A DNA stretch of 64,000 bases from an uncultured Anaerolineales bacterium (GCA_964651245.1 CAZYVI010000010.1:93182-157181), one strand, 5' to 3'; shown: positions 30,011-56,369, numbered from the stretch's first letter. Made by a program: numbers and translations. The notes: generated by a model not told the origin, from the letters alone.

Positions 30011-30505
30011 CTACCAGCGGTGCCACGCCGGGTGGCCTTCGCGCACCGCCACGAACACCCCGTCGCACGTCGCGCACAGCTCGCCCGCGGCGTCGAACAG
30101 CTCGCCGTGGACGTTGGCGCGGCGGTCGCTGGCGTCGGTGACGCGGGCGACGAGGTGGACCGGGCCGCCGGACGGCGTCGGGCGCAGCAGCTTGATGTGG
30201 TACTCGGCCGTCACGGTGCACGGCGGCTCGCTCGCCCCGGACCGGACCATGAGATGGTGGGCCGCCGTCCAGTTGCAGTGGCAGTCGAGCAGCGACCCGA
30301 TGATGCCGCCGTTGAGCATGCCCTCGAACGCCTCGTGGTACGGCTCGCCCTGCCAGTCGGCGACGACGGCGTCGCCCTCGACGCGGCTCTTGATGCGCAG
30401 CCCCCGGGCATTCGCCGGACCGCAGCCGAAGCAGATGCTGGCGGGGGCGTAGCGGTCCTGGAGGGCGAGCGGTGTTCGATCGGCGTCCGGCGGCACGTTC
30501 GTCAA
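30011..30505 (-). CDS. PaaI-family (hotdog-fold) thioesterase
   Basis: [14 protein letters not shown]...[23 protein letters not shown]...[16 protein letters not shown] start with GAGGAGG 6 nt upstream. The longer ORF to 30658 adds an Arg-rich N-terminus. Confidence 0.55.
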
Positions 30506-30651
30506 CTCAAGCCTCCTCACCCCTGTCGATCGAGGTTCGGCCCTCAGCCTACCACAACCATCGCCGCCGCGGCGCCGGGCGTCGGGGCGGCGACCGCCGC
30601 CGCGGACCACCCATCCGCATCGACGCCCGCGCGATGCGGTATCCTGGGCCG

Positions 30652-33297
30652 ATGGCACCGCGACCGCGCCCGCCGCTCCCCCCGCTGCCCGTCGAGCGCA
30701 CCGCCCTCATCGGCCGCGACGAGGCGCGCCGCGCCGTGGCCGAGCGGCTGGCGCGGCCCGACGTCGGGCTGGTGACGATCACCGGGCCCGGCGGCGCCGG
30801 CAAGACGCGCCTCGCCCTCGCCGTCGCCGCCGACGTGCGCGATCAGTTCCCCGACGGCGTCGCGCTGGCGCCCCTGGCCGCCCTCGCCGACCCCGCCCGC
30901 GTGCCCGACGCCCTCGGCGCCGCCGTCGGCCTGGCCGAGGCCGACGGCGCGGCCGCCGTCGCCGCGGCCATCGGCGACGCGTCGCTCCTGCTCGTCGTCG
31001 ACAACTTCGAGCACGTCACGTCCGCCGCGCCGGTCGTCGCCGACCTCCTCGCGGCCTGCCCGGGCCTCAAGGTCGTGGCGACGAGCCGCGAGCCCCTCGG
31101 TCTCTACGGCGAGCACGAGCTGCCGCTGGCGCCGTTCGACGTGCCCCGCCTCGACCAGCTGCCGGCCGGGCGCGGCGTCGCCGACGTCCTGCCGGCGCTC
31201 GCCCGCAGCCCGGCCATCGCCTTGCTCGTCGAGCGCGCCCGCGCCGTGCGGCCCGACTTCGCGCTGACCGCCGCCAACGCGCCGGCTATCGTCGACATCT
31301 GCCGCCGGCTCGACGGGCTGCCGCTGGCCATCGAGCTGGCGGCCGGCCGGCTGCGGCTGCTCGACCCGGCCGCGCTGGCCGACCGCCTGGCCGAGAGCCT
31401 CGACGTCCTGGGCGTCGGGCCGCGCGACCGGCCGGCCCGCCAGCAGACGCTGCGCGGCGCCATCGACTGGAGCTACCGGCTGCTCGAGCCCGACGAGCAG
31501 GCCCTGTTCCGCAGCCTCGGCGCGTTCGCCGGCGCCGTCGGCGTCGCGGCGGCGGCGGCGGTGCGCGCGGCGCTGCCGGATGGCGGGGCGGTGGTCGAGC
31601 CCGGCCCGGCGGCCAACGGCGGGCGGTCCGGCGACGGGGCGGCGGTCGAGGCGGGGCTGGCGTCGCTGGCGGCCAAGAGCCTGGTGCGGCCGCAGCCGGG
31701 ACCCGGTCGTCCCCGCTTCGAGCTGCTGGCGATGCTGCGCGCCTACGCCGTCGAGGCGTTGCGCGCAGCGGGCGAGCACGACGCCGTGCGCCGCGCCCTG
31801 CTGCGGTGGTGCCTCGACGAGGCGCGCGACGCGGCGGCGGCGCTCGAGTCGGCCGAGCCGCGCACCGGGGTCGAGCGGATCGTGGCCGAGCACGACAACC
31901 TCGGCGCCGTCCTGGCGTGGTCGCTGGGCGGTGGCGTCGACGCCGCTGTGGCGCAGGACGGCGCGCGGCTGGCCATCGCCTTGGAGCGGTTCTGGCTGGT
32001 GCGCGGCCGGCCGGCCGAAGGCCAGCGCTGGTGCGCCCGCGCCGCCGCCGTCCTCGACGCCAGCCCCGGCGCCGCGCCGCGCGAGCGGCTGGCCGCGCAC
32101 CGCGCCACCGGCCGCTTCGCCTACCTGCGCCACGACGTCGCCGCCGCCTCCGAGGCGCTCGACGCGGCGATGGCGCTGGCCCGGGTGATCGGCGACGACC
32201 TCGAGGCGGCCCGGACGCTGCACAGCCTGGGCACGCTAGCGCGCAACGTCGGCCGGCTCGACGACGCGCGCGCGTGCTACGCCGAGGCGCTGATCCTGGG
32301 CCGGCAGGCCGGCGCCGCGCGCGAGCCGGCGATCAGCCTCTACAACCTGGGCGCGCTGGCGATGCTCGACGGCGACCTGCCGGCGGCCGAGGCCGCCTTG
32401 ACCGAGAGCCTGGCGCTGGCCGTGGCCGCTGGCGATGTCCGCGGCGAAGTTTTCGGCCGCAGCGCGCTCGGGACGTTGGCGGCCTGGCGCGGGCACGCCG
32501 ACGCGGCCGTCACCGCCCTCGAGGCCGCGCTGGCGCTGGCCGAGCGGCACGGCTTCCGCGACCACGCCGTTGGGCACGCCAGCCTTGCGCTCTCGGCGGT
32601 CGAGCACGGCCTCGGGCGGGTCGATCGGGCGGCGGCCGTTCTGGCCGCGGCGCTGGTCCGGCGCGTCGACGACGCCGTCGCGACCGCCCACCTGGTCTGG
32701 GCGGTGGCGAACCTCGTCGGCTGGCCGGCGACGGTGCCGATCGACGACGCGGCCGGGCCGCTCGCGGCGCGCCGCCGGCGGCCCGACGCGCGCCGATCGC
32801 GCGACGCGGCGGCGCTGGCGACGGCCCTGCGCCTCGTGGCCGCGGCCGAGGCCGTCGCGCCGCTGGCCGACGTCTTCGGGGCCGAAGACGCCGCGGTCGC
32901 CGACGCCAACCGCACCGCGCTGCGGACGGCGCTCGGCCCGGCGGCGGCGTCCATCGAGGCGGACGGGGCGGCGCTGGACATCGAAGCCGCTGTGGCCGAG
33001 GCCCTGGCGGCCTGTCGCCGGCTGGCCGAGGCGGCCCCGACGCCGCCGGCCGGGTGGGCGAACGACGACGCCACGCCCGAGGACGGTGGGCGCCGCGCCG
33101 ACATGCGCGCCATGCTCAGCGAGCGCGAGTGGGAGGTCGCCGAGCGCATCGCCGCCGGGCGCACCTACCGCCAGATCGCCGACGAGCTCGCGATCGTGCC
33201 GAAGACCGTCGAAAAGCACGTCGGCAGCGCGCTGGCCAAGCTGGGGCTGGCCAACCGGACCCAGCTGGCGTTGTGGGTGCGGGGGCGCACCGGGTAG
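30652..33297 (+). CDS. LuxR-family transcriptional regulator with an N-terminal NB-ARC/AAA (STAND) NTPase and TPR repeats
   Basis: Walker [12 protein letters not shown], Walker [18 protein letters not shown], and the LPLAIELAA helical domain. Long TPR-like Ala/Leu repeats. C-terminal [51 protein letters not shown] plus 6 nt precedes the ATG at 30652. Confidence 0.8.
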
Positions 33298-33858: not shown

Positions 33859-34761
33859 CTAACCCCCCACCCGGTCGCGCGTCCGGCCGCGGCGGGCGCG
33901 CTTCTCGAGGAACTCGATGATGGCGCTGGCGACGTCGACGCCGCTGGCGGCCTCGATCCCCTCGAGGCCGGGCGACGAGTTGACCTCGATGACGAGCGGC
34001 CCGTGGTTGCTGCGCAACAGGTCGACGCCGGCCACGTTCAGGCCCAGCGTCTTGCAGGCGCGCACCGCCGTCGTCCGCTCCACCGGGCGCAGGCGGATGG
34101 CGCTGGCCGAGCCGCCGCGGTGGAGGTTGCTGCGGAACTCGCCCTCGGCCGCCTGCCGGCGCATCGCCGCCACCACCCGGCCGCCGACGACGAAGGCGCG
34201 GATGTCGGCGCCGCCGGCTTCGGCGATGAACTCCTGGAGCAGGATGTTGGCGTCGAGCTGTCGGAAGGCGGCGATGACCGACTCGGCCGCGTTGCGCGTC
34301 TCGGCCAGGACGACGCCCATCCCCTGGGTGCCCTCGAGCAGCTTGACGACGAACGGCGGCGAGCCGACGCTGTCGATCAGGCCCTGGATGTCCTTCGTGG
34401 CGTGGGCGAAGCCGGTGACGGGCAGGCCGACCCCCTCGCGGCTCAGCAGCTGCAGGCTGCGCAGCTTGTCGCGCGAGCGCGAGATCGCCTGCGACTCGTT
34501 GGCGGCGAAGACGCCCATCATCTCGAACTGGCGCACCACCGCCGTACCGTAGAACGTGTAGCTGGCGCCGATGCGCGGGATGATCGCGTCGAAGTCGAGC
34601 GTCTTGCCGCCGAGGATGACGGACGGCTTCTGCGACGTGATGTTCATGTAGCAGCGCAGATAGTCCACCACCTGGACCTCGTGGCCGCGCGCCTCGGCGG
34701 CCTCGCGCAGGCGGGAGGTGGAGTAGAGCGAGGCGCGGCGCGACAGGATGCCGATCTTCAC
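33859..34761 (-). CDS. rimK: ribosomal protein S6 modification protein RimK (alpha-L-glutamate ligase, ATP-grasp)
   Basis: Collinear match to recalled E. coli RimK: [91 protein letters not shown] start with GGAGAA 6 nt upstream. Confidence 0.9.
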
Positions 34762-35258
34762 GCGGGGTTCTCCGGGGCGGGGGTGGGCGCGCGGTCGTCG
34801 CCGGACATCGGCTCGCGCGCGGTCTGGAGGAACGAGCGGCCGCTGTGGACCAGGAAGCGGCGGCGCAGCGCCTGGCGGCCGAGGAGCAACCGGAAGCCCA
34901 TAACGTCGCGCCGCACCAGCGTCAGGTCGATCGGGTAGCGGTGGTCGCCCACCACGAGCGTCGTCGAGATCACCGGCCGGAACGTGAGCTTGCCGCTGGA
35001 CGAGCGCACCCACTTCATGCCCGCCAGCGGCGCGGCGCAGGCCACGATCGTGTCGTCGTCGCCCTGCACCGGATGGACCTGGAACCGCACCCAGCGCTCG
35101 CCGTCGCGCGCGAACCGCTTCACGTCCCAGGCGTGCAGCGCCGACGACCGCGCGCCGGTGTCGACCTTGGCCTTGACGGCCGCGATGCCGAGATCGGGCA
35201 GGGCCACCCACTCCCGCCACCCGATCGTCTCGAGCGTGCGCCGCGCGCGTTTGACCAC
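34758..35258 (-). CDS. RimK-associated ATP-dependent zinc protease (retropepsin-like, DUF785/PF05618)
   Basis: [36 protein letters not shown] start with GGAGGT 5 nt upstream. The stop overlaps the rimK start as GTGA. Confidence 0.7.
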
Positions 35259-35377
35259 CCCCACCTCCGCGTCTCGGCGGCCCACGAAGGGGCGGGCTTG
35301 GCCGCGCGCCGCGATGATGCCACCACGCCACCGGGCGCGCCACCGGGCGCAACGGCCCCGCGGCGCCCCGCCCGCCC

Positions 35378-38227
35378 TCAGGTAGGCGGCGCCGTGGCCA
35401 GCGCGACCGCGTCGTCGGCCGACAACGCCTCGCCCTCGGCCACGGCGGCCGCGGCGGCGTCGGCGCCGAGGGCGGCGACGACGGACGCTGTGTCGGCATC
35501 GCACTTGGGCACCTCGCGCGGCGTCAGGTGGGCGCCGATCCGATGCCGCAGACCGGCTGCGGCGCCGAACAGCCGCGCCGCCGCGATCGGGTTGCCCTCC
35601 GCCAGCGCCAGCCGGCCCAGCGGCGGCAGGACGCGCGACAACCCGCGCGGGTCGCCGGCGTCGAGGCGCAGCCGCGCCGCGGCGCCGAGCTCGGCGCGGG
35701 CGGCGGCCAGGTCGCCTTGGGCCAGCCGGATGTCGCCGCGGGTGTGGTGGATCGTGGCCAGCGTCCAGATGTCCTCGACGGCTTCGGCCAGCGGCCGCGC
35801 CTCGTCGAGCCAGGCCTCGGCGGCCGCCAGGTCGCGGGCGTCGGCGTCGATCCCCGCCAGGTTGATCAGCGTCGCCGCCATGCCCTCGCGGTCGTCGAGT
35901 TCGCGCTGGATGGCCAGGGCGGCGGCGAAGTGGTCCCGCGCTTCGGCCATGTCGCCGCGCTCGGCGGTGACGATGCCCAGACCGTGCAGCACGCCGGCCT
36001 CGGCGTAGCGGTCGCCCAGGCGCCGGGCGACGACCAGGTTGAGGCGCGCCGCATCGGCCGCGGCGTCGAGGTCGCCTTCGTCGACCGCCACGAGGCCGAG
36101 GTTGTGGACGATCCGCAGCGCCAGCGCGTCGTCGCCGCAGGCCTCGGCCAGCGCCCGGGCCTCGCCGAGGGCGGCGCGGGCGGCGGCGAAGTCGCCGCGC
36201 AGCCACGTCAGGACGCCGAGGCCGTTCATCGCCCGCGCGCGGGCGTTGGAGGCGCGGCCGGCGGCCGGGTTGGACAGGGCCCGGCGCAGGTAGGCTTGGC
36301 CTTCCTGGAGGTGGCCCCGCAGGTACCAGTAGCGCCAGAGGTCGGCGGCCATCGCCACCGCGGCGTCGGCCTGTCCGCGGGCGATGAGGTGGTCGAGGGC
36401 GGCGCGCAGGTTGGCGTGCTCGGCTGCCAGACGCTCGAGCCAGAGCGCCTGCTCGCCACCGACGACGTGCTGCCGGCCGGCATCGGCCATCGCCGCCAGC
36501 GCCGCGGCGTGCCGGTCGGCCACCGCCTCGGCCTCGCCGGCCGCGGCGAGCAGGTCGGCGGCGTACTCGATGACGACCTGGAACAGCGTGAACCGGGCGG
36601 AATCGCCCGCGGGCGCCGGCTGGACCAGGCTCATGTCGACGAGCGCCGTCAGCGACGTGAAGACGTCGAGCGGACTGGTCTCGGGGTCGACCGGGGCGGC
36701 GCAGATGGACTCGGCCAGCTCGATCGTCCAGCCGCCGCGGAAGACGGCCAGGCGGCGGAACAGCCGGCGCTCGTCGGGCCCGAGCAGGGCGTGGCTCCAG
36801 TCGAGGGTGGCGGCCAACGTCTGCTGCCGCGCCGGCAGGTCGCGCCGCGCCCCGCCGAGCTCGGCCAGCCGGCCTTCGAGGCGCGCCAGCAGCGCGGCCG
36901 GCGGCAGCATGCGCACCCGGGCCGCGGCCAGCTCGATCGCCAGCGGCACGCCGTCGAGACGGCGACAGATCGCCTCGACGGCCGCCGCGTTGTCGGCGGT
37001 GAGCGCGAAGTCGGCGTCGGTGGCGCGGGCGCGATCGACGAACAGCATCACGGCCGGGCTGGCGGCGACGGCGGCCACGGCATCGGCGTCGAGCCCGCGG
37101 GCGCTGCCGGCGGCGGCGTCGGGCAGGCGGTCGAGGTCGTCGAGGTCGTCGTCCGCTGCCGGCAGCGCCAGCGGGCCGAGGGCCACCTCGTGCTCGCCGC
37201 GCACCCGCAGCGGGGCGCGGCTGGTGACGATCAGCCGCAGCGACGGGCAGGCTTCGAGCAACGCGGCGAGGTCGGGGCCGACCGCCACGATCTGCTCGAG
37301 GTTGTCGAGCACCAGCAGCGTGCGGCGCTCGGCCAGGCGCGCCGTGAGCACCTCGGCCAGCGGCGTGCTGCCGCCCTCGGCGACGCCGAGCGCGGCCGCC
37401 AGGGCCGGCAGGACGAGGGCTGGATCGTCGATCGCGGCCAGCGGCACGAAGAAGGCGCCGTCGGGGAAGTCGTCGAGGGCCTCGGCGGCCAGCTGCAGCG
37501 CCAGCCGCGACTTGCCGATGCCGCCCGGTCCGGTCAGCGTCACAAGCCGGGCGTCGGGGCGGTCGAGGAGGGCGTGGACCTCGGCGACCTCGGCGGCGCG
37601 GTCGATGAGCGGCGTCAGCGCCTGCGGCAGGTTGTGGGGGTGGGCGTCGAGCGTCTTCAGCGCCGGGAACGCCGCCGGCAGGTCATCCACGACCGCTTGG
37701 TGGACCTCCTCCGGCGCCAGCAGGTCGCGCAGCCGGTGCGCGCCGAGCGACTGCAGCGCCACGCCCGAGGGCAGGTGGTCGCGCACCAGCAGCGCCACCG
37801 CCTGGCTGAGCAGGATCTGGCCGCCGTAGCCGGCCGCCATGAGCCGCGCCAGACGGTTGAGGCACGGCGCCACGTAGTCGCCGCGATGCGGTGCGGCCTC
37901 GCCGGCGTGGACCGCCATCCGCACCGCCAGCGGCCCGTCGGGCCCCCAGTCCGCCGTCGCCAGGGCGCGCTGGGCGTCGACGGCCGCGGCGAGGGCGTCG
38001 GGGGCGGTGTGGAACGCGGCCTGGACGGCGTCGCCGACGCGCTTGAACCAGACGCCGCCGTGCGCGGCGATCGCGCGCTCGACGATCGCGTCGTGCCGGG
38101 CCAGGGCGGCGCGCATGGCCGCGGCGTCGCGCTCCCAGCGGGCCGTGCTGCCCTGGATGTCGGTGAACAGGAAGGCGACGGTGCCGGTGGGCCAGGCGGG
38201 GGCGGCGTCGCCGGGCCGGGCGGTCAG
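35378..38227 (-). CDS. class III adenylate/guanylate cyclase domain fused to an NB-ARC (STAND) NTPase and a long TPR array; no HTH; start codon uncertain
   Basis: Cyclase motifs [44 protein letters not shown] motifs [39 protein letters not shown]. More than ten TPR-like repeats follow. No in-frame ATG or GTG lies upstream of the cyclase domain; only a CTG at 38225-38227, which overlaps the upstream gene's stop. Confidence 0.75.
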
Positions 38228-38790
38228 CGGACGAGCTCCGCCGCCAGCCCGACCGCCAGCAGTCCCAGGCCGAGCAGGACGAACAGCGACGCCTGGTTGA
38301 AGGCACGCAGCTTGGCGTTCGTGATCACGGCGTTGGCGACGATCTGGCCGGCCAGCGCGACGTGCAGCGGGTGGTCGGCCGGCGCGTAGCCCGTGGCGCC
38401 GCCGTAGCGGGCGGCGACCTCGGCGGCGAGCTCGTCGGGCGTGTAGGCCGCCAGGTGGCCGCTGTAGAACAGGTTGTCGTGCGGCTCGCCGCGGCGGGGG
38501 CGCGACGGCCGCAGCCGCGGCGGGCCGTGCGGCCGGAACGACCACACCGCGGTGGCCAGCGCCGCCAGGAACGCCAGCTCGGCGGCGCCGAACGCGGCCA
38601 CCGCCGGCGCCGGCATGTTGTCGGCGCCGCGCAGCAGGCTGATCATCGCCGCGTTCGCCGTGCCCGTCAGGGCGGAGACGGCCAGGTTCTTGGCCTCGGC
38701 GAACCGCAGCCAGGCGTCGACGCGGTCGAGGATGTCGGCCAGGAGGTCGCCGGTCGGGCCGGCGTCGGCGGCCGGCGCGCGGGCGGTCAT
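38224..38790 (-). CDS. hypothetical membrane protein (188 aa; hydrophobic segments plus a C-terminal TM anchor)
   Basis: MTARAPAADAGPTGDLLADILDRVDAWLRFAEAKN..., hydrophobic stretches, then the C-terminal SLFVLLGLGLLAVGLAAELV. Its ATG overlaps the upstream stop as ATGA at 38787-38790, and its stop overlaps the cyclase CTG. Confidence 0.5.
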   Translation of the reverse strand: MTARAPAADAGPTGDLLADILDRVDAWLRFAEAKNLAVSALTGTANAAMISLLRGADNMPAPAVAAFGAAELAFLAALATAVWSFRPHGPPRLRPSRPRRGEPHDNLFYSGHLAAYTPDELAAEVAARYGGATGYAPADHPLHVALAGQIVANAVITNAKLRAFNQASLFVLLGLGLLAVGLAAELVR

Positions 38791-39218
38791 GCCGCCGGCC
38801 AGAACCGCGTGACGAGCTCGTCGACGATCGGGACGAGCAGCACCGTCGTGGCCAGGATGGCCGGCGTCACCCCTTCGTCGAGGCCGAACAGGTCGCCGCC
38901 GGCCGAGGTGACGCTGACGGCCCAGCCGACGTAGGCCACGCCCGCCAACGCGTAGAAGTACCACGGCCCGCGGGTCTGCTGCTCGCGCAGCCGCGTCGCC
39001 AGCAGGTAGAGGACGGTGCCGACGAGGCCGATGCCGAAGACCGCCCAGCGCCAGGCGGCGGCGCTGTCCGGCAGGTTGGCGTACGTCGGCACGTAGAACG
39101 CCAGCACCTCGGCCGGGACGTACTTCGTCAGCTTGCTCGGCAGCGTGTCGGCCTCGCCGCCGGCGTCGGCGGCGCGCACGCGCTGGCTGTCGGGGGCGTA
39201 GACGATGGCGCGGGGCAT
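38787..39218 (-). CDS. hypothetical small membrane protein (143 aa, 3 TM helices)
   Basis: MPRAIVYAPDSQ... then WRWAVFGIGLVGTVLYLL, PWYFYALAGVAYVGWAV, VTPAILATTVLLVPIV. Strong RBS: GAGGAGG 5 nt upstream of the ATG at 39216-39218. Confidence 0.55.
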   Translation of the reverse strand: MPRAIVYAPDSQRVRAADAGGEADTLPSKLTKYVPAEVLAFYVPTYANLPDSAAAWRWAVFGIGLVGTVLYLLATRLREQQTRGPWYFYALAGVAYVGWAVSVTSAGGDLFGLDEGVTPAILATTVLLVPIVDELVTRFWPAA

Positions 39219-39353
39219 CGGGTCCTCCTCGGGGCGAACGGAGAAGCGCGGGCCAGTGTAGGCCGGCGGGGGGCGGGTCGCAAGGGCGGCGACGGGGGTG
39301 GTATCATCGACCGGCTCGACCGACACCGTCCCCACCAACGAGGAGCCCCTGCC

Positions 39354-41267
39354 ATGCCCACGACCCCGTGGCGCCGCTGGGCGCCGCACGCGCCGCTGGC
39401 GGCGATCGTGGCGCTCTACCTGGCGACGGCCGCCGCCTACGCCTGGCGGGTGCCGATCCTCGAGGGCGCCGACGAGCACGGGCACGCGCTGGTGGTCCAG
39501 CACGTCAGCATCCACGGCAGCCCGCCGCGCATCGGCACGCTCTGGGAGGCCGTCCAGCCGCCGCTCTACTACGCCGTCGCCGCAGCGGTCCACGGCGCGG
39601 CCGGCGGCGGCCGGATCGTGCCGTCCACGCTCCGGCTCAACGACGGCTTCCGGTTCGACGACCCCAGCTCGGCCGACGCGTTCGATCCGCGCAGCTATGC
39701 GCCGGCCGACGCCCGCCCGGCGCGCCGCCTGCGCGCCCTGTCGATGCTCTTCGGCGCGCTGACGCTCGGCTGCGTGTACGCGACGGCCCTGGCGGTCTCG
39801 CGCGGGCGACGGTTGGTGGCATGGTCGGCCGCCGCGCTCCCGGCGCTCACGCCGATGTACGCCCACCACCACGCCGTGATCACGAACGACAGCCTGGCAA
39901 CGCTGTGGTGCGCCGTGGTCGTCTGGCTGCTGGCGCGGCACGTCATGGCGGGCGCGGCGGCGCCGGGAGCCGGCGGCGGAGTCGGGGGCAGCGGGGGCAC
40001 CGCGCGGCAGGCGGTGGGAATGGGCATCGCCGCCGGCCTCGGCATCTGGACCAAGCTCACGATGGCCCCGGTGGCCGCCGCCGCCGCCGTCCTGCTGGTG
40101 TGGGGGCCGGGGCCGGCCGCGGCGCGCCGGCGCGCCGCCGTCCGATTCGCGCTGACGGCAGGGGCCGTGGCCAGCCCGTGGCTGATCCTGAACACCTGGC
40201 ACTACGGTGATCCGCTCGCCCGCGCCGCGATGCAGCAGGCGCACGCCGCGCTGGCGGTGCAGCGCACGCCGTTCGCGTTGATCGGCGACGGCGGGTTCTG
40301 GCGGATGGTCTTCGAGTCCTACTGGGGTCGGCTGGGGTCGATGACGGTGCCGCTGCGCGCCGAGGACTACGCCCTGTTCCGCCTCGTAGCGGCCGTCGGC
40401 GCGCTTGGCCTGCCCGTCGCCATGGGGCGCCGCGTCATCGACCGGCGGGCCGCCGGCGCGCTGGGGCTCGTGGTCGGCCTGACCTGGGTCGCCTTCGTGG
40501 CCCACAACCTGGGGTTGTCGGCGCCGCAAGGCCGGCTGCTGTTCCCGGCGCTGCCGGCGCTGTCGGTGCTGTGGGCGGCCGGCTGGACCGCCGGGCTCGA
40601 TGGGGCGGTCGACGCCGCCCGCCATGCCGCGCGGCGCGCCGGTGTGGCCGTCGGGCCGCGCCGGCGCTGGGCGGGCGCGATCGGCGCGGCGGCATCCGCC
40701 GGGCTCGTCGCGGCGCTCGGGCTGGTCAACCTCCAGACGCTGGCCGGCCCCGTGCAGCGCGCCTTCCACGACGCGCCGGCGGCGCGCGCGGCGCAGCTCG
40801 CCGCGCCCGCGCCGCGCCGGCCGGCCGCCGCCTCCGCCCCCGCCGCGCCCGACGACGGCGCCCGGCCCGTCGCGTCGCGCGCGATCCGTGCCGCGGCGCG
40901 ACCCGACCGGCCGCCGCCCGCGCCGCCTTCGACGCTGGCCCGTGCCGATCGGCCCGCTGCGGCCGGCACGCTCCGCACGGCGCCCGGCGCCGCCGAGGAC
41001 GCCAGCGTGGCCGTTGCCGCGCCCGCTGCCGCGGAGTCGCGCGATCGGCGCCCGCGGCGGCCCGCGGCCAAGCCCCGGCCGCCGTTCGAGCCCGACGCGG
41101 ACGACGCGGCGGCCGACGACCGGGCCGCGCTCGAGCGGCGACGCCACGTCCCGAACGGGGGCGAGCTGCCGCCGATCGACGCCGCGCCGTGGGCGGCGCC
41201 GACGCCGCAGGCGGGCGGCGCGCAGCAGCCGATGCCCGTGCCGCCGGTGTCGCCGCCCTCGGCCTGA
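39354..41267 (+). CDS. glycosyltransferase family 39 / PMT_2-like (ArnT/PMT-type GT-C) membrane protein with a Pro/Ala-rich C-terminal tail
   Basis: N-terminal loop EGADEHGH and QPPLYYAV as in PMT/ArnT-like enzymes, with 10 or more TM helices. AGGAG lies 8 nt upstream of the ATG. Convergent with the YfhO-like gene, stops 3 nt apart. Confidence 0.55.
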   Translation: MPTTPWRRWAPHAPLAAIVALYLATAAAYAWRVPILEGADEHGHALVVQHVSIHGSPPRIGTLWEAVQPPLYYAVAAAVHGAAGGGRIVPSTLRLNDGFRFDDPSSADAFDPRSYAPADARPARRLRALSMLFGALTLGCVYATALAVSRGRRLVAWSAAALPALTPMYAHHHAVITNDSLATLWCAVVVWLLARHVMAGAAAPGAGGGVGGSGGTARQAVGMGIAAGLGIWTKLTMAPVAAAAAVLLVWGPGPAAARRRAAVRFALTAGAVASPWLILNTWHYGDPLARAAMQQAHAALAVQRTPFALIGDGGFWRMVFESYWGRLGSMTVPLRAEDYALFRLVAAVGALGLPVAMGRRVIDRRAAGALGLVVGLTWVAFVAHNLGLSAPQGRLLFPALPALSVLWAAGWTAGLDGAVDAARHAARRAGVAVGPRRRWAGAIGAAASAGLVAALGLVNLQTLAGPVQRAFHDAPAARAAQLAAPAPRRPAAASAPAAPDDGARPVASRAIRAAARPDRPPPAPPSTLARADRPAAAGTLRTAPGAAEDASVAVAAPAAAESRDRRPRRPAAKPRPPFEPDADDAAADDRAALERRRHVPNGGELPPIDAAPWAAPTPQAGGAQQPMPVPPVSPPSA

Positions 41268-54458: not shown

Positions 54459-54632
54459 CGCGGCGGCCGTCCGCTGACGGCCCCGCCGGGGGCGCGACGC
54501 GCCTCAAGCGCATTTACGATATAATCACGCCAGCTTTCCCGCGGGAACCAAGCGGCGCGGCCGCGCGCGGCGCGCCCGCCGGAGCCCTGCGGCACGCCGA
54601 CGAGCGCGCCGGCGACAGAGGAAGGGGCCGAC

Positions 54633-56369
54633 GTGGCGACGACACAGCCGTTCCGCATCCGACTGCTCGGCACGTTCGCCCTCGAGCGCGATGGCCATGA
54701 AGTGCAGCGCTTCCACGCCAACCGCCCGGAGCTGCTGCTGATGTACATGGCGGTGGCCCCCGACACCTGGCACCTGCGCAAGTCGATCGCGGCCGATCTC
54801 TGGCCGGCGACGGACGTCTCGACGGCCCGCAAGCACCTCTCCTACAACCTGTTCTTGCTCAAGAAGATCACCGCCGGGCACGGCCTCGAGACGCCGTTCG
54901 AGGAGACCCGCCACGCGCTCCGCCTCCGGCCCGACCTGGGCCTCGACACGCGCGACTTCCTGCACGCCTTGGCCGCCGCCGGCGCCGCGCAGACCGTCGA
55001 CGGGCGGCTGCGACACCTCGAGGCGGCGCTCGAGCTCTACGGCCAGGGCCTGCTGCCGTCGCACCGCCAGCCGTGGCTGACGGTGCCGCAGCAGCGGCTG
55101 GCCGAGCTGGCCGACGGGGCGCGCCAGATGATGACGGTGGCCCTGCCGGCGCCCGCGGCGGCGATCGCCGGCCAGCTGCCGGGCCTCGCCGGCGCCTGGG
55201 CGCCGGGTGGTCCGATCGGCCTGGCCTCCGACGGCGGTCCCGCGCCGGCGTTCCCCGGCCTCGTCGACGGGCCGGCCGAGGCGCCGCCGCACGACGGCGA
55301 CGAGGCGGGCTGGACGCTCGGCGCGTGGGCGGCCTGGGCGGACGAGGCCGAGGCCGCGGTGCACGGACCGGACCGCGACGCCTGGCTGGCGCAGTTCGAT
55401 GACCGCGCCGCCGCCCTCGCCGACGCGGTCGAGCACGCCATCCGCCGCGGCCGCGCCCTCGAGGCGCTGCCGATCTGCGCCGCGCTGTCGGACTACTACC
55501 GCCTCCGCCGCCGCCTGCCCGAGGGGCGTCGCCTGCTCGACCGCCTGCTGGCCGAGGTCCGCGCCGTCCCGCCGCAGCTGCACGCCCGGGCGCTGCACAG
55601 CGCCGGCACGATGGCCTACTTCGACGGCGACCGCGAGACCGCCCGGCGCCGGCTCGAGCAGGCGCTGGCCCGCTGGCGGGCGCTCAAGGAGCCCGGCGTC
55701 GGGCTGCTGCGGACGCTGGGCAACCTCGCCATCGCGCTGCAGGGCCTCCACGAGCTCGACCGGGCGGCCGAGATCTACGACCAGTGCCTGGCGATGGCCC
55801 AGCGCCTCGATGAGCCGCGGCTGGCCGCGACGGCGCTCTACAACGCGGCCCAGAACGAGATCCGCCGCCGCGACCCGGCGCGGGCGCGCGCGCTCATCGC
55901 CCAGCGCCAGGCGCTGCTGGCCGAGCGGCCCGACGTCGTCGAGCTGGCGCGCACCTACGCGCTCGAGGCGGCCGTCGACATCCTGCTCGGCGCCCCGGAC
56001 GACGCCCGCCACGCGGCGGCGCTCGCCTTGTCGCTCTACACGTCGGCGGGCGATGGCGACGGCACTGCGCACGCGCTGCGGCTGCTCGGCCAGATCGCCC
56101 TGGCGGACGGCGACGCTGACGGCGCCGAAGCGCACTACGACGAGAGCCTCGCGGTGGCCGAGCGGAGCCGCAGCTTCTGGGACGTCGGCCAGTCGCTGGC
56201 CGGCCTGGCGCTCGTCTACCGCGAGCGCGGCGACGAGGCCAAGGCGCAGGCGACCTACCTGCGCGCCAGCGGCCTGCTGCGCGCCGCGCAGGACGACGAG
56301 AGCGTCCGGCGCCTGGCGGCCGAGTTCGCGGCCCGCGCCCCGGCGACGGCGCCCGCGGTCGCCGGCTAG
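54633..56369 (+). CDS. SARP-family transcriptional activator (OmpR-type winged-helix, BTAD and TPR)
   Basis: FRIRLLGTFALERDGHEV N-terminal DNA-binding domain, BTAD region, and TPR-like repeats. GTG start with GAGGAAGGGG upstream. Promoter-like TATAAT at 54520-54525 gives a leader of about 108 nt. Confidence 0.75.
   Translation: MATTQPFRIRLLGTFALERDGHEVQRFHANRPELLLMYMAVAPDTWHLRKSIAADLWPATDVSTARKHLSYNLFLLKKITAGHGLETPFEETRHALRLRPDLGLDTRDFLHALAAAGAAQTVDGRLRHLEAALELYGQGLLPSHRQPWLTVPQQRLAELADGARQMMTVALPAPAAAIAGQLPGLAGAWAPGGPIGLASDGGPAPAFPGLVDGPAEAPPHDGDEAGWTLGAWAAWADEAEAAVHGPDRDAWLAQFDDRAAALADAVEHAIRRGRALEALPICAALSDYYRLRRRLPEGRRLLDRLLAEVRAVPPQLHARALHSAGTMAYFDGDRETARRRLEQALARWRALKEPGVGLLRTLGNLAIALQGLHELDRAAEIYDQCLAMAQRLDEPRLAATALYNAAQNEIRRRDPARARALIAQRQALLAERPDVVELARTYALEAAVDILLGAPDDARHAAALALSLYTSAGDGDGTAHALRLLGQIALADGDADGAEAHYDESLAVAERSRSFWDVGQSLAGLALVYRERGDEAKAQATYLRASGLLRAAQDDESVRRLAAEFAARAPATAPAVAG

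Follow-up and report, generated by a model that had tools for sequence, protein, structure and literature searches.

A PycTM-family effector gene coupled to a cyclase-STAND receptor gene in Chloroflexota: a candidate Pycsar-like module

How does a cyclic-nucleotide defence system learn that its host has been infected? For the anti-phage systems Pycsar and Pucsar, the effector side is understood, but the sensing of infection by the cyclase is not. Their membrane effector is PycTM (pJV1-spdB3-like 3TM), which is reported to be triggered by cyclic CMP, cyclic UMP or cyclic GMP (cCMP, cUMP or cGMP) from an adjoining cyclase and to confer phage protection (bioRxiv 10.64898/2026.08.12.744502; PMC13069673). 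Here we analyse a cassette of three minus-strand genes in a 64,000-nt stretch of DNA from an uncultured Anaerolineales bacterium (GCA_964651245.1 CAZYVI010000010.1:93182-157181; hereafter the window, along whose full length all positions are counted). Gene B (38790..38224) encodes a 188-aa PycTM-family protein (pJV1-spdB3-like 3TM), and gene C (38227..35378), when read from a CTG codon, a 949-aa protein in which a class III cyclase precedes a STAND nucleoside triphosphatase (NTPase) and an array of tetratricopeptide repeats (TPRs); a small gene A lies upstream of both. A first-pass annotation of the window, made from the sequence alone, had described the three genes as chained by stop/start overlaps, and so they are, through an ATGA at 38787-38790 and a CTGA at the boundary of B and C.

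The locus resembles Pycsar and Pucsar in its effector family (PF18967), in having its effector and its class III-type cyclase in one operon of two genes, adjacency being conserved here with a 4-nt overlap, and in its presumed logic, whereby a cyclase would make a cyclic nucleotide monophosphate (cNMP) that acts on a membrane effector and aborts the infection. The order effector-then-cyclase is also found in described Pycsar loci (PMC13069673). However, those systems combine a cNMP cyclase (PycC or PucC) with an effector of the PycTM/PucTM or CNBD-TIR kind, and PycC is a stand-alone protein of ~250-330 aa, whereas here the cyclase forms the head of a 949-aa STAND-TPR receptor. Gene C also falls outside the PycC clade, lying nearer to adenylyl cyclases of the Ma1120 type, and its specificity residues (K/D) are of the purine and not the pyrimidine type. 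Moreover, the host phylum is Chloroflexota, the locus is not part of a defence island, and it is a CTG that couples the stop to the start.

Fusions of cyclases to STAND proteins are already in the literature as predicted immune proteins, which reduces the novelty of gene C: in one preprint, cNMP cyclases fused to STAND NTPases make up a predicted 'Immune clade 1' (bioRxiv 10.64898/2026.08.12.744502), and further conflict systems with cyclase heads are on record (Kaur et al. 2020, PMC7159879). These proteins share with gene C a cNMP cyclase, a STAND module of the AP-ATPase/NACHT type and a repeat sensor, and their immune role was predicted by comparing genomes. In the available text of the preprint, however, the Immune clade 1 cyclases are tied only to 'less-understood predicted immune systems' and the 3TM effector is given to a separate, Pycsar-related clade, whereas in the present locus the direct partner of a PycTM effector is a STAND-fused cyclase. 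A 2026 survey of bacterial STANDs in Nature does not mention cyclases (PMC13581612), and a domain-centric screen of the same year describes only stand-alone PycC variants (PMC13069673).

Further comparisons concern single features. The mycobacterial proteins of the Rv0386, Rv1358 and Rv2488c type, together with MalT/LAL regulators, are alike in the order of class III cyclase, P-loop NTPase module (NOD) and TPRs, and the NOD is homologous; gene C differs in lacking their C-terminal GerE/LuxR helix-turn-helix (HTH) and in having a dedicated membrane effector gene. The absence of this HTH had been claimed from the start, and Pfam finds no GerE or LuxR domain in gene C, whose output therefore cannot be direct control of transcription. 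Rv0386 is also said to use Q/N where gene C keeps K/D, a report attributed to Castro et al. 2005. Avs and bNACHT proteins and plant TIR-NLRs (TNLs; NLR, nucleotide-binding leucine-rich repeat receptor) share the layout of effector head, STAND NTPase and repeat sensor; their heads are gathered by ligand-induced oligomerisation, as those of gene C would be, and in plant TNLs, too, a small-molecule signal acts on a separate executor. The head of gene C, however, is a cyclase and not a nuclease, protease or TIR domain, and its sensor consists of TPRs of the MalT/PH0952 kind. A last likeness, to type I CBASS, lies in the best PADLOC model of gene B, PDLC00668, which is labelled a 2TM effector; here, by contrast, the nucleotide maker is a class III cyclase, and no CD-NTase/SMODS gene was found among the called genes of nine loci (L001-L008, L178) or, by PADLOC, in genes A, B and C.

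Effector, receptor-cyclase and their linkage

Gene B reaches 31.2 bits against the Pfam family PF18967 (PycTM; cut-off 27.2). Its match to PDLC00668 ('Effector 2TM'; E 2.7e-25) spans profile positions 12-177 of 184, and the PycTM models of PADLOC follow with E values from 3.7e-15 (PDLC02364) to 1.4e-8. Hydrophobic helices lie at residues 64-82 and 169-187, and an exhaustive HMMER search returned 741 relatives. Judged by these profiles, gene B is a PycTM-family, cyclic-nucleotide-activated membrane effector of the class used by Pycsar and Pucsar. The first-pass annotation had known the 188-aa product as a small membrane protein and had suggested screening it against Pycsar and CBASS effector profiles; the PycTM match that resulted is decisive for how the locus is read.

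The cyclase domain of gene C (38194..37643, aa 12-195) carries, by alignment, the metal-binding residues D23 and D66, the specificity pair K62/D117, the phosphate-binding R103 and the transition-state residues N124 and R128, all of them invariant or nearly so in 27 homologues. The metal-binding and catalytic motifs quoted in the first-pass annotation are thus present and conserved, and residue conservation indicates that the active site is intact; the loss of catalytic residues that could have spoken against a working cyclase was not found. In a phmmer search of the PDB, the first 200 residues of gene C matched Ma1120 (4wp3, E 5.5e-13) as well as GRESAG4 and Rv1900c, and Foldseek matched the domain to Ma1120 with a TM-score of ~0.9 and also to Rv1900c. 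Against PF00211 the protein scores 19.9 bits over residues 13-89 only, below the cut-off of 21.9 (the relative L018 reaches 39.9 bits). Given the fold match, we attribute this shortfall to divergence and not to absence of the domain. By these PDB sequence matches, the nearest relatives of the cyclase are canonical adenylyl cyclases and not PycC. In keeping with this, PADLOC gave no cyclase model at E<=0.1 and no PycC or Avs match for gene C, just a generic TPR model and a marginal mad8. Hidden Markov models (HMMs) built from stand-alone cyclases that adjoin PycTM score 12-18 bits on gene C, and hhalign relates the two at 94.9% probability, which denotes homology at the superfamily level only.

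The STAND NTPase module (NOD; NB-ARC/AP-ATPase/MalT-like) occupies 37630..36548 (aa ~200-560), with a Walker A motif GPGGIGKS (aa 233-240, nt 37508-37531), a Walker B motif LLVLDN (aa 304-309) and a TSR (aa 335-337) that are invariant in the same 27 homologues. Pfam matches to AAA_22, AAA_16, NACHT and NB-ARC are weak in this region, those to NB-ARC and NACHT each falling under their cut-offs. The C-terminal TPR array (36460..35381, aa ~590-949), the presumed ligand sensor, is recognised as TPR_12 at E 3e-15. The profile check of the large protein hence came out strong for the TPRs, but below cut-off for PF00211 and NB-ARC. A confident full-length AlphaFold model (pLDDT 86.5, pTM 0.73) renders the TPR region as an unbroken helical-repeat solenoid; its first Foldseek match is 6mfv (PH0952, a STAND with a TPR sensor; E 1.6e-12), followed later by Apaf-1, plant resistosomes including ZAR1, and LGN-type TPR structures. 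The module order first proposed, cyclase, NB-ARC-like NTPase and TPRs, is thus borne out by Pfam, the PDB search, and AlphaFold with Foldseek. Among orthologues the TPR array is the fastest-evolving part, at 58-64% identity versus 77-84% for the cyclase domain.

Two further genes of the window share modules with gene C. A plus-strand gene at 30472-33297 encodes a 941-aa paralogue with the same NOD (HMM E 1.7e-113) and TPRs and no cyclase head; it ends in a GerE/LuxR HTH (E 4.6e-15) and resembles a MalT/LAL-type regulator. This gene and the cassette are convergent, separated by rimK and a rimB-like gene, and L001 is arranged alike. Also on the plus strand, an open reading frame of up to 614 aa at 54525-56366 has TPRs (TPR_12, E 1.4e-18) that also match, at E 3e-42, an HMM made from the TPRs of the cyclase-STAND family, with neither NOD nor cyclase.

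Is the pairing of effector and receptor more than a local accident? Four other assemblies contain close orthologues of gene C (65-72% identity), and there A-B-C is retained between the same flanking genes, which are PMT/YfhO glycosyltransferases at one end and rimB-like and rimK genes at the other. The B-C pair also recurs without gene A in differing neighbourhoods: behind methyltransferase, ornithine carbamoyltransferase (OTCase) and amino-acid kinase genes (L005/6), behind SpoU methylase and apurinic/apyrimidinic (AP) endonuclease genes (L007/8), in L178/9, and on the contig of the homologue P0012. The linkage therefore reaches beyond mere synteny. When a profile of diverse PycTM sequences was scanned over one genome per species, 80 loci were obtained. 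In L011-L015, L018 and L031, with PycTM identity down to 36%, the next gene after PycTM encodes a cyclase-NOD(-TPR) protein; in L019 and L032 such a gene lies within 1.4-1.8 kb. Three homologues of gene C, the nearest outside the window clade by sequence identity, were looked up: P0010 and P0012 each have a PycTM gene just upstream, in surroundings that differ again; P0047 has no adjoining PycTM, and neither has P0011, which the tree places just outside the linked group. In this neighbour-joining tree of cyclase and NOD, drawn without support values, a single group made up entirely of linked members unites the window clade with L015, P0010 and P0012, and L018 and L032 join at the next node.

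The wider family is very large, with >7,700 cyclase-STAND-TPR matches in Chloroflexota. Among the matches listed, 80 metagenome relatives (34-52% identity, no window-clade members) included 65 that bear a cyclase, and none of these 65 had PycTM within 4 kb. Several of the linked loci sit on short contigs. On viral contigs, PycTM relatives adjoin stand-alone cyclases and cyclase-STAND proteins are almost absent. On the evidence of gene neighbourhoods, PycTM and cyclase-STAND are a real two-gene module, found in at least five well-defined Chloroflexota contexts and restricted to one branch of this large family. The first-pass annotation would have fallen had homologues of the large protein never been linked to the small genes; they are linked to the 188-aa gene in several contexts.

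PycTM genes also occur alone. In metagenome-assembled genomes (MAGs) of Thermomicrobiales/Chloroflexia, orphan PycTM genes with 33-39% identity to gene B (L016, L017, L020-L029, L033, L034, L036) have no cyclase of any type in the fetched flanks of up to 8 kb; several of these loci share an upstream 3-keto-5-aminohexanoate-cleavage-like gene and are hence syntenic. As the phylum is rich in unlinked cyclase-STANDs, such orphans might be served in trans.

Other PycTM loci carry different large neighbours. In cyanobacteria and Cryosericum (L045, L049, L064, L066, L085, L043), the gene after PycTM has N-terminal cyclase-like motifs (xxDLVxSS ... GGDxY ... RIGxxTG), in heads fused to VMAP-M1/VMAP-C, FGE-sulfatase, GAF, WD40 (1089 aa) or PPR repeats. 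Their identity as cyclases found no support by hhalign, and Pfam sees only the C-terminal parts. If these heads are cyclases, a sensor-fused cyclase next to PycTM would be a wider theme. In a Chitinophaga MAG (L082:235-3306), a 1024-aa NACHT protein (Pfam E 3.7e-12) ends 3 nt before PycTM, and its N-terminal 190 aa contain HFDIKGFT and GDGY motifs reminiscent of a cyclase, unconfirmed by hhalign (probability <5%). In two Chamaesiphon MAGs (L044, L050), PycTM is followed by a protein of ~680-800 aa with a Pol-beta-type nucleotidyltransferase (weak Pfam match) and long TPRs, where a different nucleotide-making enzyme may stand in the place of the cyclase.

Proposed working of the pair

What might the pair do? 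A nucleotide-signal-producing STAND module was the original suggestion and, with a membrane output added, it is the best reading because the 188-aa protein is a PycTM-family effector. With moderate confidence we favour the view that the core of the cassette is a Pycsar-like abortive-infection module whose cyclase is built into a STAND (NLR-like) receptor. That the module would serve defence is suggested by the known role of the PycTM family, by the mobility of the pair between neighbourhoods and by the fast-evolving sensor.

Class III cyclases have to dimerise to be active, and the partners share their active sites. At rest, the gene C protein would be an ADP-bound monomer, autoinhibited by its TPRs, so that cyclase heads are kept apart. 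A trigger, most likely a phage protein, would then bind the TPR array and induce nucleotide exchange and oligomerisation through the NTPase, and this would bring the heads together and lead to synthesis of a 3',5'-cNMP, probably cyclic AMP (cAMP). The messenger would activate PycTM, and through membrane damage the infected cell would stop growing (abortive infection). Autoinhibition in the ADP-bound state, relief by a ligand and subsequent oligomerisation are described for STAND proteins (PMC6468293). As to the messenger, K62/D117 aligns with the K/D of Ma1120, which makes cAMP a likelier product than a pyrimidine nucleotide and weakly suggests that gene C makes cAMP; for Ma1120 itself, a KDA-to-EGY mutant was made to switch specificity.

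If true, placing the cyclase inside a STAND-TPR receptor would supply an explicit activation mechanism and a defined sensor domain, and the system would link NLR-like receptors with cyclic-nucleotide signalling, two themes of immunity that have been treated separately. One branch or more of the very large, uncharacterised Chloroflexota family annotated as 'predicted ATPase / class 3 adenylate cyclase / TPR' would also gain a suggested function.

Several points weigh against such a defence module. The >7,700-member family is mostly unlinked to PycTM and would fit general signal transduction equally well; the K/D pair predicts cAMP, a housekeeping messenger that would be risky as a trigger of abortive infection; and gene C, with neither a PycC nor an Avs match in PADLOC, appears closer to canonical adenylyl cyclases than to those of Pycsar. 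The tree that groups the linked loci carries no support values. As for its setting, the locus lies outside any recognisable defence island, between envelope glycosyltransferase and rimK/rimB-like genes, and has been inherited vertically with these flanking genes across 65-100% identity. Finally, initiation at CTG, to which we turn below, is itself deduced, and the invariance of the third-position C among relatives could be partly chance.

Some of these observations would be expected if the pair had a housekeeping task instead, with the STAND-TPR receptor sensing an endogenous or environmental ligand (compare MalT, AfsR and Rv0386-type proteins) and making cAMP, and the PycTM-like protein acting as a cNMP-gated channel that tunes envelope or ion physiology without killing the cell. 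The position among PMT/YfhO glycosyltransferase and rimK/rimB-like genes, kept in long-range synteny in several genomes, would suit this role, as would the size of a family mostly unlinked to effectors, the cAMP predicted from K62/D117, the LuxR-type STAND paralogue next door (clearly a transcription regulator), the ~13 Thermomicrobiales/Chloroflexia PycTM genes with no cyclase nearby and the near absence of the family from viral contigs. Yet all PycTM-family proteins characterised so far are effectors of phage defence, the two genes travel together among unrelated neighbourhoods in the manner typical of defence modules, the sensor is the domain that evolves fastest, and the weak start of the sensor gene suggests a product that is dangerous in dose. 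On balance, we consider a housekeeping role rather unlikely, and retain the abortive-infection module as the preferred interpretation.

The CTGA junction and the start of gene C

At the boundary of B and C, a GGAG (38239-38236) is followed by an 8-nt spacer and by the codon CTG (38227-38225), which overlaps the TGA of gene B (38226-38224), all on the minus strand. That the CTG shares nucleotides with the stop of the 188-aa gene had been noted in the first-pass annotation; its coordinates are confirmed, and the CTGA proves to be conserved, being kept in all ten distinct window-clade sequences even though the last PycTM sense codon before it varies (CGC, CTC, CCC). The GGAG, 8 nt upstream of the CTG (-12 to -9), is likewise kept in each of the nine clade sequences checked, and eight of nine have a linker of equal length between the CTG and the WP[TS]G motif. 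In an Ardenticatenales orthologue (L013:8529-8590), the linker between CTG and cyclase contains an in-frame 15-nt tandem duplication (GHNAA twice), with the frame kept.

Conventional starts are missing from this region. No ATG, GTG or TTG lies between the CTG and D23 (38161-38159) in the window, and no canonical start upstream of D23 is present in L001, L002, L004-8 or L011-13. The first-pass statement that the cyclase frame holds neither ATG nor GTG is inexact in that there is one GTG, at 38545, which falls entirely within gene B, 106 codons farther upstream; its substance stands, in that this GTG is absent from the orthologues and so is no credible start. Upstream of the next ATG, codons 12-37 vary 2, 4 and 13 times at positions 1, 2 and 3, respectively, and the variable codons comprise 10 with synonymous changes only and four with replacements. 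This third-position bias indicates that the stretch is translated in the cyclase frame and under purifying selection. In the sister lineages L014 and L015, the homologous junction reads GTGA, an ordinary 4-nt stop/start overlap, from which it follows that the CTG corresponds to a conventional start codon whose first base, G, became C; at linked loci farther removed, gene C begins with an ATG that follows PycTM after a gap of 5 to ~220 nt.

We infer that gene C starts at the CTG at 38227 by termination-reinitiation, and that a GTGA overlap was the ancestral state of this junction. Coupling by termination-reinitiation classically takes place at 4-nt overlaps (PMC6728339; PMC10666635). Alone among the NTG codons, CTG initiates poorly in bacteria, and the receptor-cyclase is thus probably produced at a far lower level than the effector. 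Read in this way, the conserved CTGA junction would be a clean natural case of reinitiation at a non-canonical start, and one that hides the cyclase from annotation.

Why has the cyclase head been overlooked? The public annotation lets the protein begin at the next ATG in the frame (38116, Met38) and records a 912-aa 'tetratricopeptide repeat protein'. Gene calls from NCBI, JGI and Logan for gene C and its close orthologues all begin at Met38 or its equivalent (912-921 aa). Since such calls lose the first strand of the cyclase together with its first, catalytic metal-binding Asp, they earn the protein its TPR label and make it invisible to domain-based defence finders. For the clade entries P0001, P0002 and P0004-P0007, too, the gene calls begin at an internal Met or later, with no precomputed PF00211 match.

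The agreement of the callers, the conservation of Met38 and the failure of gene C to reach the PF00211 cut-off are what could be cited for a true start at Met38, in which case the cyclase would be catalytically dead and the protein a STAND-TPR scaffold or a decaying gene. Against this stands the purifying selection on codons 12-37, which encode a conserved strand including D23, and all remaining catalytic residues are kept. A start at GTG 38545, not conserved in any orthologue, would in turn add 106 arginine-rich, off-frame residues. We regard either of these starts as very improbable.

Least credible of all is that B and C are one membrane-anchored protein, joined near the end of B by a 1-nt indel (as the first-pass annotation had proposed) or by a programmed -1 frameshift: gene C indeed has no canonical start codon, and its frame, -1 relative to gene B, is open through most of gene B, but at 76% G+C an open frame of this kind is to be expected by chance, the junction is common to ten distinct sequences whose assemblies are independent, which excludes a sequencing error, the closest outgroups keep separate genes (GTGA, or an ATG after 5 to ~220 nt), PycTM aligns with its profile to the very end, and no slippery heptamer (X_XXY_YYZ) occurs in the PycTM frame of the window or is conserved in the clade.

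Reinitiation at the CTG also enters a bolder extension of the abortive-infection reading, possible but doubtful in our estimate: an NLR-like immune receptor with a diffusible-messenger output, a CTG start selected to hold the receptor far below the effector, and a network of many sensors to one effector. Here, STAND oligomerisation would turn on the fused cyclase by induced proximity and the cNMP would trigger a separately encoded membrane executioner; the network would bring together the orphan PycTM genes of Chloroflexota and the many cyclase-STAND-TPR paralogues of the phylum that are not linked to one. If true, bacteria would have a counterpart to the signalling of plant TNLs, and the question of how Pycsar-type cyclases sense infection would have an answer.

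Gene A and the genomic surroundings

Gene A (39218..38787, minus strand, 143 aa) begins with an ATG preceded by GAGGAGGA at 39230-39223, and its TGA shares nucleotides with the ATG of gene B (ATGA, 38790-38787). Through the two overlaps the three genes are translationally coupled, in agreement with the single shared unit proposed at first. The window has a G+C content of ~76%, so that open frames by themselves say little; the A-B-C arrangement, however, recurs in independent assemblies and is thus more than chance. The closest named relatives of the locus are Ardenticatenales and Anaerolineae MAGs. A promoter and terminator scan of 34600-39500 revealed none, a result that is uninformative at 76% G+C in an organism that does not follow the sigma-70 consensus.

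The gene A product is a small helical membrane protein with three to four hydrophobic helices and no match in Pfam, PADLOC, NCBIfam or PHROGs. Its AlphaFold model (pLDDT 50) is too poor for a fold search. Only seven close homologues were found, and the gene is present just in the syntenic subset (the window, L001-4, L009/10 and L013), being missing from L005-8, L011, L012, L014, L015, L018 and L178 among the loci examined. This restricted distribution marks gene A as an accessory outside the conserved core, and by its occurrence it is a later, lineage-specific addition of a membrane protein. The 143-aa gene can hence no longer be counted as a member of the cassette proper, as the first-pass annotation had it: it is gone from most loci that keep the B-C pair, and of the linkages proposed, that of the 188-aa gene with the cyclase-STAND extends beyond synteny, but that of the 143-aa gene does not.

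The next genes after gene C, on its own strand, are rimK (ATP-grasp) and a rimB-like 'Zn_protease' gene (PF05618; together 33859-35351), which are kept in L001, L003 and L004. In the Anaerolineae MAG GCA_046328485.1, a HEPN/MNT toxin-antitoxin-like pair is found ~2.4 kb downstream of the cassette (L003:11223-11919), the only defence-like neighbour seen in the orthologous loci.

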